From assembly GCA_965199155.1 (NCBI GenBank), contig CBDAQJ010000002.1, positions 158,171 to 222,170 of the forward strand: 64,000 nt of DNA, given 5' to 3'. The translations under genes and the position numbers were made by a program. Under the pieces are notes generated by a model. It saw only the letters and a list, made by a program, of their open reading frames with translations, searched no databases and was not told the DNA's origin. Below, in pieces: positions 9,033 through 64,000 of this stretch; positions within the stretch are counted from its first letter, which is position 1; each line of letters starts with the position of its first letter. This DNA is from Acetobacteraceae bacterium (GTDB lineage Bacteria; Pseudomonadota; Alphaproteobacteria; Acetobacterales; Acetobacteraceae).

Positions 9033-9674
9033 ATGACGACGCGCATGAACAAGACGCGCCTCCTTCTTCTCGCCCTCTGCACCGCCTCGGCGCTGAACCT
9101 GATGACCGCGCGGGCTCACGCCCAGCTCAGCGCGGGCAGTGGCGGCATCGGCGGCGGTCCTGGGGGGGGCGGCGGCGGTCCCGGGGGGGGCGGGGCTGCC
9201 CCGGAGGAGGAAGAGAAGAAGGCACCGCCCCCGCCATCGGCGATCCCGGGCGCGGTCGCCGGCACGGTGGTGCCCGCGTCGAAGAACGCGGCCGATCTCG
9301 ACCCCAACGCCGCCCTGTTCGATGCGATCGATCGCGGCGATATCGGCTCGGCCCGCGAGGCGCTGGGCCGGGGTGCCGACCTCAACGCGCGCAACGTTCT
9401 GGGCCAGCGGCCGATCGACCTGTCGATCGATCTGAGCCGCAACGACATCACCTTCCTGCTGCTGTCGATGCGCTCGCAGAACGGCGACCAGGCGCCGGCG
9501 GCCGATTCGTCGGGCAACGACACGGCGGAGGCCGACCTGCCGCCGTCGCGCAGCGCGCAGGTGGCGGCGACCACGCCCGTGGCCGCCCGCGGCGCGCAGT
9601 TCGCGAGCACGAGCCATGCGAGCGGCGGGACGCCGCAGCCTGGCGCGGGGTTTCTGGGGTTTGGGACGCGCTGA
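9033..9674 (+). CDS. Secreted ankyrin-repeat protein with a Gly-rich N-terminal region
   Basis: In-frame ATG within ORF 8802..9674. Signal peptide MTTRMNKTRLLLLALCTASALNLMTARAHA. ANK-like ALFDAIDRGDIGSAREALGRGADLNARNVLGQRPIDLSI. Confidence 0.7.
   Translation: MTTRMNKTRLLLLALCTASALNLMTARAHAQLSAGSGGIGGGPGGGGGGPGGGGAAPEEEEKKAPPPPSAIPGAVAGTVVPASKNAADLDPNAALFDAIDRGDIGSAREALGRGADLNARNVLGQRPIDLSIDLSRNDITFLLLSMRSQNGDQAPAADSSGNDTAEADLPPSRSAQVAATTPVAARGAQFASTSHASGGTPQPGAGFLGFGTR
9150..9191 (+). repeat. 21-bp tandem duplication, each unit ending in a G8 homopolymer (G8 at 9162-9169 and 9183-9190)
   Basis: GGCGGCGGTCCTGGGGGGGGC / GGCGGCGGTCCCGGGGGGGGC read directly. Lies inside the ankyrin-protein CDS and encodes GGGPGGG x2. 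Confidence 0.9.
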
Positions 9675-9800
9675 GAAGAAGGCCAGGGGCTCTGCCCCTG
9701 GACCGAGCTCAAGGGCAGTCGCCCTTAGAACCCATTCCTTAAGTCACGGGATCCAAGGGGTAAGCCCCTTGGCGGGTCCAGGGCAGAGCCCTGGCCTTCC
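9675..9800. repeat. Four-hairpin palindromic intergenic element, copy 1 (MITE/REP-like)
   Basis: GAAGAAGG-CCAGGGGCtctGCCCCTGG-...-AAGGGCagtcGCCCTT-...-CCAAGGGGtaagCCCCTTGG-cgggt-CCAGGGCagaGCCCTGG-CCTTCC. Starts 1 nt after the ankyrin TGA. Confidence 0.9.
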
Positions 9801-24827: not shown

Positions 24828-25877
24828 ATGAAACTGTTCACCTGCCAGGCGTGCCAGTCGATGCTGTTCTTCGAGAACCGCCGCTGCGAATGCTGCGGCC
24901 ACGCGCTCGGCTACCTGCCGGACCTCGCCGAGCTGTCGGCGCTCGAAGCGGATGGCGATGCGTTCATGGCACTTGGCGAGCCCACGCGGCGCTACCGGCT
25001 CTGCGCAAACGCGGAGCATGACGTCTGCAACTGGCTGGTCGAGGCGGATGCGCCCAACCCGTACTGCGCCGCCTGCTGCCACAATCGCACCATCCCGGAT
25101 ATCGGAGGCGCGGAGAGCCTGGAGCGCTGGCGGAAGCTGGAGTTTGCCAAGCACCGGCTGTTCTACTCGCTGATCCGGTTGGGCATCCCCCTTCCCGATC
25201 GGAACCAGGACCCGAACGAGGGGCTGGTGTTCGACTTCCTCGAGGAGCAGCCGGGTCACAAGGTGCTGACCGGGCACGACAACGGCATCATCACCATCGC
25301 CGCCAAGGAAGCCGATGACGGGGTGCGCGAGGAGCTCCGCCACCAGATGCACGAGAGCTACCGCACGCTGCTCGGCCATTTCCGCCACGAGGTCGGGCAC
25401 TGGATCTGGGACCGGCTGGTGCGCGACGGCGGCCATCTGGAGGAATGCCGCGCGCTGTTCGGTGACGACACGCTCGACTACCAGGCGGCGCTGAACCGGC
25501 ACTACGCGGAAGGTGCGCCGGCGAACTGGAGCGACCACCACATCTCGGCCTACGCGACCACCCATCCGTGGGAGGACTTTGCCGAGACCTGGGCGCACTA
25601 TCTGCACATCATGGACACGCTGGAGACGGGTAGCGCGTTCGGCATCTCGGTGCGGCCGGTGGCAGCGCCGGCGGGGGACCTGTCGACCGATGTGAGGCTC
25701 GATCCCTATCGTACCGCGGATTTCGGCGTTCTGCTCGACGGTTGGCTGCCGCTGGTGTTTGCGGTGAACAGCCTGAACCGGAGCATGGGGTTGTCGGATC
25801 TCTATCCGTTCGTGATCAGCGACGATGTGCGGCGGAAGCTGGGGTTCATGCACATGATTGCGCGTGGGGCGGACTAG
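24828..25877 (+). CDS. Zinc-ribbon plus putative HExxH zinc-metallopeptidase domain protein (uncharacterised family)
   Basis: N-terminal CQAC...CECCG zinc ribbon. HFRHEVGHWIW (HExxH) and HPWEDFAETWAHY. In-frame ATG inside ORF 24372..25877, with an alternative ATG at 24798. Confidence 0.75.
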   Translation: MKLFTCQACQSMLFFENRRCECCGHALGYLPDLAELSALEADGDAFMALGEPTRRYRLCANAEHDVCNWLVEADAPNPYCAACCHNRTIPDIGGAESLERWRKLEFAKHRLFYSLIRLGIPLPDRNQDPNEGLVFDFLEEQPGHKVLTGHDNGIITIAAKEADDGVREELRHQMHESYRTLLGHFRHEVGHWIWDRLVRDGGHLEECRALFGDDTLDYQAALNRHYAEGAPANWSDHHISAYATTHPWEDFAETWAHYLHIMDTLETGSAFGISVRPVAAPAGDLSTDVRLDPYRTADFGVLLDGWLPLVFAVNSLNRSMGLSDLYPFVISDDVRRKLGFMHMIARGAD

Positions 25878-25999
25878 AAGAAGGCCAGGGGCTCTGCCCC
25901 TGGACCCCGCCAGGAGGGAAGGCCCTCCTGGACCTGCCTATTGAAAGGGGTCTGGGGTTAAGACCCCAGCGGGTCCAGGGCAGAGCCCTGGATTCTTCC
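25877..25999. repeat. Four-hairpin palindromic element, copy 3
   Basis: Shares the G of the upstream TAG stop. Hairpins: CCAGGGGCtctGCCCCTGG, CCAGGAGGGaaggCCCTCCTGG, CTGGGGTtaagACCCCAG, CCAGGGCagaGCCCTGG. Ends 26 nt before the rplQ stop on the opposite strand. Confidence 0.9.
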
Positions 26000-40121: not shown

Positions 40122-41312
<1,191 letters not shown>

Positions 41313-41371
41313 CGTCGTCTCTCCGCTACCGGTTCAATCGGAACCGTGCTTCGGGTTGAACTTCTCTTCTC

Positions 41372-41848
41372 TTACCAGCGGTAGTGGCTGAAGGCCTTGT
41401 TCGCCTCGGCCATCCGGTGGGTGTCTTCACGCTTCTTCACGGCCGAACCGCGGTTGTTCACCGCGTCGTTCAGCTCGTTCGAGAGCCGCTCTTCCATCGT
41501 GTGCTCGCCGCGCTTGCGCGACGCATCGATGATCCAGCGGATCGCGAGGGCCTGGCGGCGCTCGGTGCGCACCTCGACGGGGACCTGGTAGGTCGCACCA
41601 CCGACGCGGCGCGAGCGAACCTCGACAGCCGGCTTCACATTCTCGAGCGCCTCGTGGAACATGCGCACCGGATCGCCCGATGCACCGCCACGGCGACGCA
41701 GCGTGTCGAGCGCACCGTAGACGATGCCCTCGGCAGCTGACTTCTTCCCATCATACATCAGCGCATTCATAAAACGCGTGATGACCTGGTCGCCGAACTT
41801 CGGGTCCGGCAGGATCTCGCGCTTCACGGCGCGGTGGCGGCGGCTCAT
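41372..41848 (-). CDS. rpsG: 30S ribosomal protein S7
   Basis: [20 protein letters not shown]...[19 protein letters not shown] canonical S7. Confidence 0.98.
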
Positions 41849-41862
41849 CCCTGGTCTCTCTC

Positions 41863-42234
41863 TTACTTCGGCCGCTTCGCGCCGTAGAGCGAACGACGCT
41901 TGCGACGCTTGGCGATGCCCTGGGTGTCGAGCACGCCGCGGAGGATATGATAGCGCACGCCCGGCAGATCCTTCACGCGGCCGCCGCGGATCAGCACGAC
42001 CGAATGTTCCTGCAGGTTGTGCCCCTCGCCGGGGATGTAGCTCACGACCTCGAAGCCGTTGGTCAGCCGCACCTTGGCGACCTTACGAAGCGCCGAGTTC
42101 GGCTTCTTCGGGGTCACCGTATAGACGCGCGTGCAGACGCCGCGCTTCTGCGGGCAACCCTGCAGCGCCGGCACCTTGTTGCGCTTGGCAGCAGGCTCGC
42201 GGCCCTTCGTAATCAGCTGGTTGATCGTCGGCAT
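41863..42234 (-). CDS. rpsL: 30S ribosomal protein S12
   Basis: MPTINQLI..G...[29 protein letters not shown] canonical S12. Confidence 0.99.
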
Positions 42235-42612
42235 ACGCCCTTACGCCCTCACACCCGGTCCACGATCACGGCAGATCCACCAGAGCGCATCCGATCGCCA
42301 CATGAACACAGACCGCACGGTTCAGTGGGCCCAGGCCCACCCGCGCGGGGTGTCACACCGCCGAAGGCCTAAGCTTCGGGTCCGAAGAGGGACCGGAAGC
42401 GGCGCCACCAACGCAGATGCGTTCAATATGACGGAAGGACACCGCGATGGCGGGGTCTGCCGAGGGGCGGATACCTACGAGCCCGGTCTGGGCGAGTCAA
42501 GCGGTGTTCACCCCGCCGCGCCGAAGTGAAGCCTCGGCTACGGCCGAGCTTTTACTTGGAGGATGCCGGCCACCGCGACACTCTCCCCGTTGGCGGCGAT
42601 GAGGAACAGGGC

Positions 42613-43926
42613 ATGCGCACATCAAGGCTCGGCGTCGCCGTTGTGGCTTTCGCGGCCGTCCTCCACACGCCGGCGCTGGCGAACGACTCGGCCGCCGACA
42701 CGGAACGTGGCCTCGCTGTGTTCGGCCGCGTGTTCGAGACCATCCACGACAACTACGTCCACAGCGTCACGCGGGACGCGTTGGCGCGTGCCGCGATCGA
42801 CGGCATGCTCGCGAGCCTCGACCCGCACAGCGCCTACCTCCCCGAACCCGACTACGAGGCGCGCGAGGCGCTGCTGTCCGGCCGCTTCGCCGGCATCGGC
42901 CTCGACCTGCAGGACCGGCAAGGCATCGTGACGGTGGTGGCCCCCGTGGCGGGCAGCCCGGCCGCGGCCGCGGGCCTGCAACCGGGCGACCGTCTCCTGC
43001 GCGTCGACGGGCGCGACGTCGCCAATCTCCTGCTCGACGACGTGGTGGCACGGATCAAGGGCGAGCCCGGAACCACGGTCCGCCTGGCCGTCGAGACGGC
43101 GTCCCACAAGGTCCGCACGCTTCGCCTGAGGCGCGTGATGGTCCACATGCCGGTGGTCCAGTCGTCGCTGTTCGGCACCCGGGCCTATATCAAGTTGACG
43201 ACCTTCGACTCCGAGGCCGGCGCTGCCGTGGCCGCGTCCTGGGCGGCGCTCGCGCAGCAGGCCGGCGGGCCGCCTACGGGCCTCGTGCTCGACCTGCGTG
43301 GCAACCCGGGCGGCGAGGTCGACCAGGCAGTCGCGGTCGCCAGCCTTTTCATCCGTCGCGGCGCGATCGTCTCGATGCGCGGCCGCGATCGCGGCGACGA
43401 TGCCAGCTTCGGGGCGCACGGCCAGGACATCACGAGCGGCGCGCCGATCGTGGTGCTCTCGGATGCGAGCACCGCGTCGGCGAGCGAGATCGTCGCGGGC
43501 GCCCTGCAGGACCACGACCGCGCCGCGATCCTGGGCACCCGCTCCTTCGGCAAGGGCTCGGTCCAGGAGATGTTGCCGCTCGACGGTGACGGCGCTCTGG
43601 TGCTCACCACCGCGCTCTACTTCACCCCGAGCGGGCGTTCGATCCAGGGCCTCGGCATCGTGCCCGACATCGTCGTGCACGAAGCGCGCGACGAGCCCAA
43701 CGCGGCGGGCTCCACCGAGGCCACGCTGCCGCACGCGATCGAGCCGGTGGATGCGACCGACGTGCCGCGCGTCTCGCCCTGGCGGGCACTCGCGGGCGCC
43801 ATCGCGTCGCGCCCGCCCGCGACCTGGCCGGAGTTCGACGCGACCCTTCCTGCCACCGACTTCCAGCTGCAGCAGGGGTTAAAGCTGCTCGGGCTGATGT
43901 CCACCACCATGACGGCGCAGCGGTGA
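42613..43926 (+). CDS. S41-family C-terminal processing (tail-specific) peptidase with PDZ domain
   Basis: Internal ATG 42613 with GAGGA 7 nt upstream. Signal peptide MRTSRLGVAVVAFAAVLHTPALA. PDZ GIGLDLQDRQGIVTVVAPVAGSPAAAAGLQPGD. LDLRGNPGG, catalytic-Ser region SDASTASASEIVAG and GTRSFGKGSVQ. Confidence 0.88.
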   Translation: MRTSRLGVAVVAFAAVLHTPALANDSAADTERGLAVFGRVFETIHDNYVHSVTRDALARAAIDGMLASLDPHSAYLPEPDYEAREALLSGRFAGIGLDLQDRQGIVTVVAPVAGSPAAAAGLQPGDRLLRVDGRDVANLLLDDVVARIKGEPGTTVRLAVETASHKVRTLRLRRVMVHMPVVQSSLFGTRAYIKLTTFDSEAGAAVAASWAALAQQAGGPPTGLVLDLRGNPGGEVDQAVAVASLFIRRGAIVSMRGRDRGDDASFGAHGQDITSGAPIVVLSDASTASASEIVAGALQDHDRAAILGTRSFGKGSVQEMLPLDGDGALVLTTALYFTPSGRSIQGLGIVPDIVVHEARDEPNAAGSTEATLPHAIEPVDATDVPRVSPWRALAGAIASRPPATWPEFDATLPATDFQLQQGLKLLGLMSTTMTAQR

Positions 43927-44057
43927 TGCCCGTCGCATTCGGGCTGCACAGCTTCGGCGATCTCTCGGGCAGGGACGTCTCGGCAACACGGGTGCTGCGG
44001 GACGTGGCCTCCGAGGTCGCGCTCCCGGACGAGGTGGGCGTCGAACTGCTCAAGTAA
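43926..44057 (+). pseudogene. 43-codon remnant resembling the N-terminus of a luciferase-like (LLM class) flavin-dependent oxidoreductase
   Basis: Below the ORF-track size cutoff. My translation is MPVAFGLHSFGDLSGRDVSATRVLRDVASEVALPDEVGVELLK*. The ..FGL.SFGD......LR...E.A...E.G...F pattern matches LLM N-termini. The ATG overlaps the ctp TGA (TGATG). The frame ends at a TAA that is the first bases of repeat copy 4. Confidence 0.5.
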
Positions 44058-44175
44058 GAGTTGGGGCTCTGCCCCAAACCCCGCCAGGGAACTGGTCCCC
44101 TGGACCACCTTGAGTTGGCAGGTCCAGGACTGCTTGTCCTGGAGGGGGTGAAGGGGGCAGAGCCCCCTTCCCTTC

Positions 44176-44178
<3 letters not shown>
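44056..44178. repeat. Four-hairpin palindromic element, copy 4 (divergent stems)
   Basis: Hairpins: TTGGGGCtctGCCCCAA, CCAGGGAactggTCCCCTGG, TCCAGGACtgcttGTCCTGGA, GAAGGGGGCagaGCCCCCTTC. The left end overlaps the TAA of the LLM remnant and the right end (CTTCTTA) overlaps the rpoC TAA. Confidence 0.85.
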
Positions 44179-48372
<4,194 letters not shown>

Positions 48373-62998: not shown

Positions 62999-63117
62999 AA
63001 GATTGGGGCTCTGCCCCAAACCCCGCCAGGGTCGAGCCGATCCTGGACCTGCCTAACGAAGGGGGTCTGGGGCCAAGGCCCCAGCGGGGTCCAGGGGCAG
63101 AGCCCCTGGCCTTCTAA
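62999..63117. repeat. Four-hairpin palindromic element, copy 5
   Basis: Hairpins: TTGGGGCtctGCCCCAA, CCAGGgtcgagccgatCCTGG, CTGGGGCCaaGGCCCCAG, CCAGGGGCagaGCCCCTGG. The right end GGCCTTCTA overlaps the histidine-kinase TAG stop (63114-63116, minus strand). Confidence 0.9.
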
Positions 63118-64000
63118 GCCCGGAACACCACCGAAAACCGGCTCCCCGCCCCGTCCGACTCCACCCCCAGCACAGCCCCATGCAGGTCCACGATCGCGGC
63201 CACCAGGCTCAGCCCCAGCCCGCTGCCCGGCACGTGCCGGCTCCGGTCCGCCCGGTAGAAGCGCTTGGTCGCCTGCAGCCGCTCCGCCTCCGACAGCCCG
63301 ATCCCGTCATCGACCACCGCCACGGTCGCCCCCGCCACCTCCACCCGCACATGCCCCCCGTCGGGCGTGAACTTGATGGCGTTGTCGATCAGGTTCGCCA
63401 CCGCCTCCATCACCAGGTCGCGGTCGCAGTCGATCGCGGCCGGCTCGTCGAGATGAAGCGTGAGCGCCACCTCCTTCGCCTCCGCCACCGGCTCGTAGAG
63501 CTCGACGGCATCCTCGGCGATCGCCGCGAGCTCGGCCCGCGCGTATCCCGCCCGCCGCCGCTGGCTCTCGATCTCGGCGATCCGCAGCAGCGCCGTGATC
63601 ATCGTGAACAGCCGGTCGAGCTCGCCCACCGCCCGGTCGATCGCGCGCCGCAGCTCGTCGGGCGGCAGCGCGCGGGTGCGCGCGCGGTCCAGCGTCGCGC
63701 GCACGCGGGCGAGCGGGGTGCGCAGGTCGTGCGCGATGTCGTCGCCCACGCCGCGGATCTCGTCGACCAGGCGCTCGATCCGGTCGAGCATCCGGTTGAC
63801 CGAGCCCGCCAGCAGGTCGAGATCGTCGCCGGTGCCGCCCTCGGGCAGCCGCCCGTCGAGGTCGCCCGCCATGATGCCTTCCACCGCGCGGTGCATGTCG
63901 CCCACCCGCACCAGCGCGCGGTAGCCGAGCAGCGCGCCGCCGCCGAGCGACATCAGCAGCGCGGGTGCGAATCCCAGCGTCAGGGCGCGGAGCGCGATCA
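63114..64000 (-). CDS. Two-component sensor histidine kinase, N-terminus outside the window
   Basis: H-box DIAHDLRTPLARV, N-box NLIDNAIKFTP, DDGIGL, GSGLGLSLV, with a HAMP-like segment upstream. The frame stays open to nt 64000. Confidence 0.88.
   Translation of the reverse strand, partial: IALRALTLGFAPALLMSLGGGALLGYRALVRVGDMHRAVEGIMAGDLDGRLPEGGTGDDLDLLAGSVNRMLDRIERLVDEIRGVGDDIAHDLRTPLARVRATLDRARTRALPPDELRRAIDRAVGELDRLFTMITALLRIAEIESQRRRAGYARAELAAIAEDAVELYEPVAEAKEVALTLHLDEPAAIDCDRDLVMEAVANLIDNAIKFTPDGGHVRVEVAGATVAVVDDGIGLSEAERLQATKRFYRADRSRHVPGSGLGLSLVAAIVDLHGAVLGVESDGAGSRFSVVFRA

Follow-up and report, generated by a model that had tools for sequence, protein, structure and literature searches.

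REP and BIME elements of enterobacteria and pseudomonads are short, GC-rich imperfect palindromes that occur in hundreds of copies, are assembled from modules as mosaics, and are found at the 3' ends of genes or in the gaps between convergent ones. The repeat family that we describe here, from a high-GC Acetobacteraceae genome (3.98 Mb in 4 contigs, 99.4% complete), is alike in all of these respects. Its copies are numerous, short, imperfectly palindromic and mosaic, and they sit at gene ends; on this comparison, their behaviour matches that of REP/BIME-type elements. The differences lie in construction, as the element is a composite of four hairpins, ~125 nt long, whose ends are purine-rich (GAAGAAGG), and is unrelated in sequence. 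REPIN/RAYT systems have a cognate Y1 transposase, whereas this genome is without one: a search of the genome with PF01797, which gave matches in control genomes, found no Y1/RAYT transposase, and for this reason we rejected assignment to a REPIN/RAYT system.

Some REPs are known to lie no more than 15 nt from a stop codon, and REPs so placed influence the translation of the gene before them (PMC12306157). The termini of GTAG REPs have been reported to supply TAG stops to flanking open reading frames, and CGTC repeats have been stated to be missing in Acetobacteraceae (Di Nocera et al. 2013, PMC3733652). The GTAG and CGTC superfamilies are like the present family in their behaviour at gene junctions, but the latter carries neither tag in its terminus consensus (GAAGAAGGCCAGGGGCTCTGCCCC), and the stop codon enriched at its junctions is TAA. 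Rfam gave only sub-threshold noise, and no published description of the hairpin sequence or of the family was found in the literature searched; the sequence of the family appears to be undescribed.

MITEs such as Correia/NEMIS and ERIC offer a further likeness: they have terminal inverted repeats and a length of ~100-150 nt, fold into a single long hairpin, are present at some orthologous sites and absent from others, and may act as terminators. The ends of the Acetobacteraceae element likewise pair with each other. However, the family termini show no consistent target-site duplication (the base before the terminus is C in 51 cases, A in 39, G in 20 and T in 18), stem variants are mixed freely between copies such that the two ends of one copy often differ, and no parent IS with matching ends was identified in a tabulation limited to the spacing of paired termini.

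Deletions that leave gene stumps beside repeats or insertion sequences are a part of ordinary genome evolution. The locus analysed here shares with such adjacent deletions an old junction (at the rpoC stop), a new junction within a gene, the disappearance of the DNA that lay between them, and a single copy left in place. It differs from the IS-mediated kind in that the element is without a known transposase, and homologous recombination between two copies would explain the arrangement equally well. As an example of gene loss at a repeat, the locus is clear but not unusual. What it provides is a dated, locus-specific instance in which an abundant Acetobacteraceae palindromic repeat stands at the exact edge of a lost gene, and in which an essential gene, rpoC, had its native 3' end replaced in the course of the same loss.

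Gene order between rpoC and rpsL

The window, by which we mean the whole stretch of 64,000 nucleotides to which all coordinates refer, carries rpoC (RNA polymerase beta', assigned with Pfam) at 44176-48372 on the minus strand, with its TAA stop at 44176-44178. In relatives, rpsL lies directly downstream of rpoC. Here rpsL (ribosomal protein S12) is found on the minus strand at 41863..42234 (97.6% identity in tblastn; Pfam Ribosom_S12_S23, E 4.6e-40), and therefore an S41 protease gene, a gene stump and a repeat copy are wedged, on the opposite strand, between the two. The divergent spacer at 42235..42612, characterised by alignment with four relatives (G007, G004, G011 and G008) and by a terminator scan, contains the conserved rpsL promoter and leader (CGCTTGAC...CGTAGGTA).

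The S41 (tail-specific, CtpA-like) protease gene occupies 42613..43926 on the plus strand and encodes a Peptidase_S41 domain (Pfam, E 9e-48) plus PDZ domains. Its frame is open from a GTG at 42526, and its start is likely the ATG at 42613 (MRTSRLG..., MRTSRLGVAVVAFAAVLHTPALA, signal peptide), which is also the start called in G007. The gene ends in a TGA at 43924-43926, and the ATG of the next frame, at 43926, shares the A of this stop in a TGATG overlap.

Two smaller features of the neighbourhood deserve mention. Between the rpsL promoter and the S41 start, at 42533-42548 (+), there is a perfect hairpin CTCGGCTACGGCCGAG followed by a T-run (CTTTTACTT), the position of which is conserved in G007; it may be an insulator of the divergent rpsL and S41 promoters, or a leftover of the insertion of the wedge. 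At 40125-41848 (-), tuf (EF-Tu) comes immediately after rpsG, without an intervening fusA, an order that G004 shares.

A remnant of a luciferase-like monooxygenase gene

The frame that opens at ATG 43926 (43926..44057, +) has 43 codons (MPVAFGLHSFGDLSGRDVSATRVLRDVASEVALPDEVGVELLK) and terminates at a TAA at 44055-44057. A preliminary description, made from the letters of the window, had taken this frame for the N-terminus of a luciferase-like monooxygenase (LLM) gene coupled through TGATG to the S41 gene, stopped by a TAA at the start of the repeat (copy 4 of the window), and followed by no remainder. Each of these points bears out. Pfam returns no match in the 43-aa peptide, and NCBIfam returns a weak one to positions 2-42 of the 337 of TIGR03858 (E 0.013), with 14.5 bits against a curated cut-off of 462 bits for the full-length protein of ~337 aa. 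An hhalign comparison of the stump with a 14-member LLM profile gives a probability of 96% and an E of 3.7e-9, and places residues 1-42 on profile positions 3-48. In a six-frame search of 41 related genomes, the peptide matched the start of a long open frame of G007 with 63% identity. Homology to this intact gene covers codons 1-42; codon 43 (AAG) and the TAA lie past the break. These alignments identify the 43-codon frame as the N-terminal remnant of a TIGR03858-type (Atu2307/SP_0267) LLM gene.

The remnant aligns with both the TIGR03858 model and the family profile over residues 1-42, and this is all that it retains of about 340 residues. No TIM barrel can be formed from so short a piece. 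It is a pseudogene fragment and not a functional member of the family, and it should be labelled as such in annotation. The LLM remainder is absent from the whole 3.98-Mb genome, where tblastn with the intact relative matches residues 1-42 only, and a profile and family search of the genome found no full LLM copy. Judged from these searches and from the alignment with G007, the loss of the rest of the gene from the genome and the position of the breakpoint are both established. Among 12 genomes, only G004, G008 and G007 have the LLM family intact; the TIGR03858-type LLM, a dispensable oxidoreductase, is accessory in the genus.

The stump also differs at positions that the family keeps constant: two residues that are invariant in the LLM profile are altered (A34P and D40E). 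Its amino acid identity to G007 is 64%, as opposed to 78% for the S41 protein, although this divergence is measured on 42 codons only, and within S41 ~10% of stretches of that length diverge as much. The two substitutions and the lower identity would be consistent with decay after inactivation, in a sequence of 42 codons that is too short for a firm test.

The intact gene in the closest relative

The closest relative of the source genome is G007, a same-genus Acetobacteraceae MAG. Its contig 401 (2.6 kb) carries, in order, the start of rpsL (-), the same rpsL leader, the S41 gene (+) and an LLM gene, which is joined to S41 through the same TGATG overlap and can be read for 282 aa before the contig runs out. 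The encoded protein matches TIGR03858 with an E of 1e-124, and a full-length homologue from Roseococcus pinisoli has 343 aa. The DNA alignment of the window with G007 runs unbroken from rpsL through S41 (79% nucleotide identity) to LLM codon 42 (CTC, 44049-44051). From 44052 divergence is complete, the window going on as AAGTAAGAGTTGGGGC... and G007 as GGCCTGGGCGAGCACCAC..., and this pairwise alignment places the breakpoint between homology to the intact LLM gene and the repeat side at 44049..44054. An intact LLM gene at the same locus in a related genome is what the preliminary description had proposed to look for, and G007 provides it, with homology ending at the repeat edge.

The contig of G007 ends inside the LLM gene, its assembly lacks the rpoC 3' end, and the arrangement from LLM to rpoC before the deletion was not seen in any genome examined. 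An exact-protein look-up intended to extend the contig returned only the same 2.6-kb contig, similar look-ups with proteins encoded in the window gave no match, and a metagenome scan with the S41 protein found no relative above 44% identity. A match to the LLM C-terminus on contig 392 of G007 was considered as the continuation of contig 401 and rejected, as it is a separate remnant in unrelated, lower-GC sequence. That fragment (L116 2259-2378, -) covers the last ~40 residues of a TIGR03858-type protein and adjoins a methyl-accepting chemotaxis-like gene, and is another gene stump.

These comparisons give the events an order in time. The window and G007 both keep the rpsL promoter and leader with the wedge upstream of it, which indicates that the wedge is older than their split. 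Since the wedge is common to both and the LLM gene is intact in G007, the truncation is specific to the lineage of the window. The S41 orthologue of G010 has no LLM gene beside it, and the pairing of S41 with LLM is thus specific to the lineage of this genome (G000) and G007.

Repeat copy 4 and the 3' end of rpoC

Copy 4, delimited by comparison with other family copies and by folding, spans about 44052/44055-44178 (44052..44178 at its widest; ~125 nt). It contains four hairpins, at 44061-44077 (TTGGGGC TCT GCCCCAA), 44084-44103, 44123-44143 and 44150-44170 (GAAGGGGGC AGA GCCCCCTTC), and of its outer ends one is purine-rich and the other pyrimidine-rich. For both strands, folding gives a single long hairpin that takes in the whole copy, with a z of about -5. 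A terminator scan flags both outward-facing hairpins, with the tails CCTTCTTA and CTCTTACTT; the tails of the flagged hairpins (CCUUCUUA, CUCUUACUU) are mixed pyrimidines and not a clean U-run. Copy 4 probably now acts in both directions as a hairpin module at the ends of the rpoC and S41 transcripts, a predicted terminator role with which the scan would agree. Its combination of a TT-type with an AGGGGGC-type end occurs in no other copy of the genome and hints faintly that copy 4 could be a recombinant of two copies; because end variants are mixed freely across the family, such a pairing says little about recombinant origin. A TA target-site duplication of the IS630/mariner type was also considered and rejected, since TA flanks copy 4, but not copies 1, 2, 3 and 5 nor the consensus.

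Both junctions of copy 4 are flush, with no unassigned spacer on either side. At the rpoC junction, the last bases of the repeat (CCTTCTTA) include the complement of the rpoC TAA stop at 44176-44178, as the preliminary description had observed. It had also raised the question of whether the last residues of RpoC come from the element. The protein ends in ...PSKAAE here, compared with ...PSRAAE and ...PSWAAE in relatives, and the conservation of the ...AAE end excludes element-derived residues; in annotation, RpoC itself is unchanged. Only the stop codon differs. It is TAG in six relatives (G002, G003, G004, G005, G010 and G011) and TAA in this genome and in G008, which are the two where a purine-rich element end abuts the stop. 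The junction is therefore the probable source of the third base of this stop codon.

In G004, G008 and G011, rpoC is followed by an intrinsic terminator (a hairpin plus T-run), the conserved rpsL promoter and leader, and rpsL. This native rpoC terminator is absent from the window, from which it follows that the lost DNA spanned the interval from LLM codon 43 to the rpoC stop. Related elements are found directly after the rpoC stop in G005, G008 and G010, and in G008 the element sits between the rpoC stop and the native terminator (L017 1960-2080).

The repeat family genome-wide

The core hairpin of the family, GGGGCTCTGCCCC, is found as an element terminus 377 times in the genome, and a blastn search of the genome with the five window copies gave >2000 partial matches; in shuffled sequence, 0 occurrences of the repeat motif are expected. 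The architecture of a copy is a purine run, hairpin 1, ACCCCGCCAGG, hairpin 2, an AT-richer centre, hairpin 3, hairpin 4 and a pyrimidine run, the consensus of the purine run being that given above for the element ends.

A further property of the family is its relation to stop codons. In 106 of the 377 terminal hairpins (28%), a gene stop falls in the interval from -4 to +3 nt around the terminus, as counted on a crude gene set of open frames of >=120 aa with GC3 >=0.78. Of the 188 termini that have a stop in their vicinity, a uniform spread would place ~11 in this interval (p 6e-77). TAA makes up 45 of the 106 junction stops (42%) and 9.5% of stops elsewhere, a ~4-fold enrichment (odds ratio 7, p 2e-18). 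In 51% of termini the base just before the terminal purine run is a T; the background value is 26%. The fusion of termini to stops and the excess of TAA suggest either that part of the stop is contributed by the end of the element or that the element targets stop codons when it inserts. For annotation, a stop codon that merges with a repeat end is no anomaly in this genome. Within the window, termini fused to stops can be seen at 9672-9690, 25874-25890, 44171-44178 and 63105-63118.

There are also signs that copies come and go. This genome and G007 both carry copy 3 (25877-25999) at the orthologous site, but G004 and G011 lack it and have a 51-57-nt spacer with a simple hairpin in its place, and this presence and absence is sequence-level evidence of turnover. 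Copies in G007 are up to 98% identical to copy 3 of the window, whereas the flanking DNA and genes are at ~87%, which points to recent activity, exchange or strong constraint.

Probable history of the locus

We hypothesize that the LLM stump arose in this lineage through an element-associated deletion, and that the deletion probably started from a copy already resident at the rpoC stop; we regard this account as likely. The common ancestor with G007 carried the S41-LLM pair between rpoC and rpsL, on the opposite strand. A repeat copy would first have settled at the rpoC stop, as members of the family usually do at stop codons. In the lineage of this genome, ~300 LLM codons, whatever lay beyond them, and the native rpoC terminator were lost, most likely either by a deletion adjacent to the resident copy or by recombination with a second copy. 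A single copy now stands at the junction, where it gives the stump its TAA and reaches into the rpoC stop. Both the role of the element as the cause of the deletion, which we infer from the geometry of the junction, and the order of events, with the resident copy preceding the deletion, belong to this reconstruction. The preliminary description had proposed that insertion of the element, or a deletion mediated by it, removed most of the gene. This reading is supported: the loss of the gene at the element edge stands, and to judge from its placement the element may have caused it. It had also seen a sign of deletion in the overlap of copy 4 with stop codons at both ends. The overlap is real, but with 28% of termini showing it, stop overlap is a habit of the whole family and therefore no special mark of a deletion at copy 4.

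The same habit bears on the order of events. It is conceivable that a deletion unrelated to the repeat first joined LLM codon 42 to the rpoC stop and that a copy was inserted there later. The family strongly prefers stop codons, and thus a later insertion at the rpoC stop after any deletion would look identical to what is found today. This sequence would require, however, that the deletion end exactly at the rpoC stop and that the insert leave no spacer on either side, which with two flush junctions amounts to more coincidences than deletion from a resident copy. The elements after the rpoC stop in G005, G008 and G010 further suggest that the site was occupied before the deletion, and we consider insertion after the deletion unlikely. 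Taken together, the flush junctions, the stop-codon habit and the rpoC-stop elements of relatives make deletion from a resident copy the most economical account.

Two other readings were also weighed. Repeats with hundreds of copies are classic sites of misjoining, and two copies wrongly joined in assembly could make the LLM gene appear truncated when it is not. The assembly is in 4 contigs and 99.4% complete, though, and the missing 300 LLM codons are nowhere in it, which makes a misjoin improbable; to either side stand the neighbours that one would expect, rpoC and rpsL-S41, and an element would still have to sit inside the LLM gene at codon 42. We give misassembly very little credence. The 43-aa frame might instead be a genuine small gene or a leader peptide coupled to S41, as it is intact, overlaps the S41 stop in TGATG and is thus translatable. 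This coupling is inherited from the intact operon, as in G007, and the peptide can be aligned residue for residue with the N-terminal 42 positions of a family of 343-aa enzymes, family-invariant residues of which are already mutated in it. No record of the exact sequence of the 43-aa product was found, in a look-up that omits the genome's own records. A functional small gene is, if anything, still harder to credit than a misjoin, and deletion of an LLM gene from a copy resident at the rpoC stop continues to be the account that we favour.

The rpoC-rpsL spacer in the genus

The spacer between rpoC and rpsL is a hotspot in the genus. Besides the wedge described here, unrelated DNA separates the two genes in G005 (7.0 kb) and in G010 (6.0 kb). 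A broader proposal, which we offer tentatively and hold to be possible rather than probable, is that the family constitutes a mobile gene-end module that homes to stop codons, inserts into the stop codon itself and often rewrites it to TAA, replaces native terminators, even that of rpoC, and seeds deletions and insertions such as those that would have made the rpoC-rpsL spacer a hotspot across the genus, all without a recognisable transposase.

Some details of this spacer in relatives can be added as separate observations. The 6.0-kb insert of G010 includes a fragment of an IS-type transposase (L204, G010:C1:3468900-3475300), and the 7.0-kb insert of G005 begins with an esterase-like gene (L205, G005:C2:717600-725000); in both genomes, a REP-like hairpin stands right after the rpoC stop. 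At the end of contig 179 of G003 (L020 1-50), a run of ~50 G just past the rpoC stop is an assembly or sequencing artefact.
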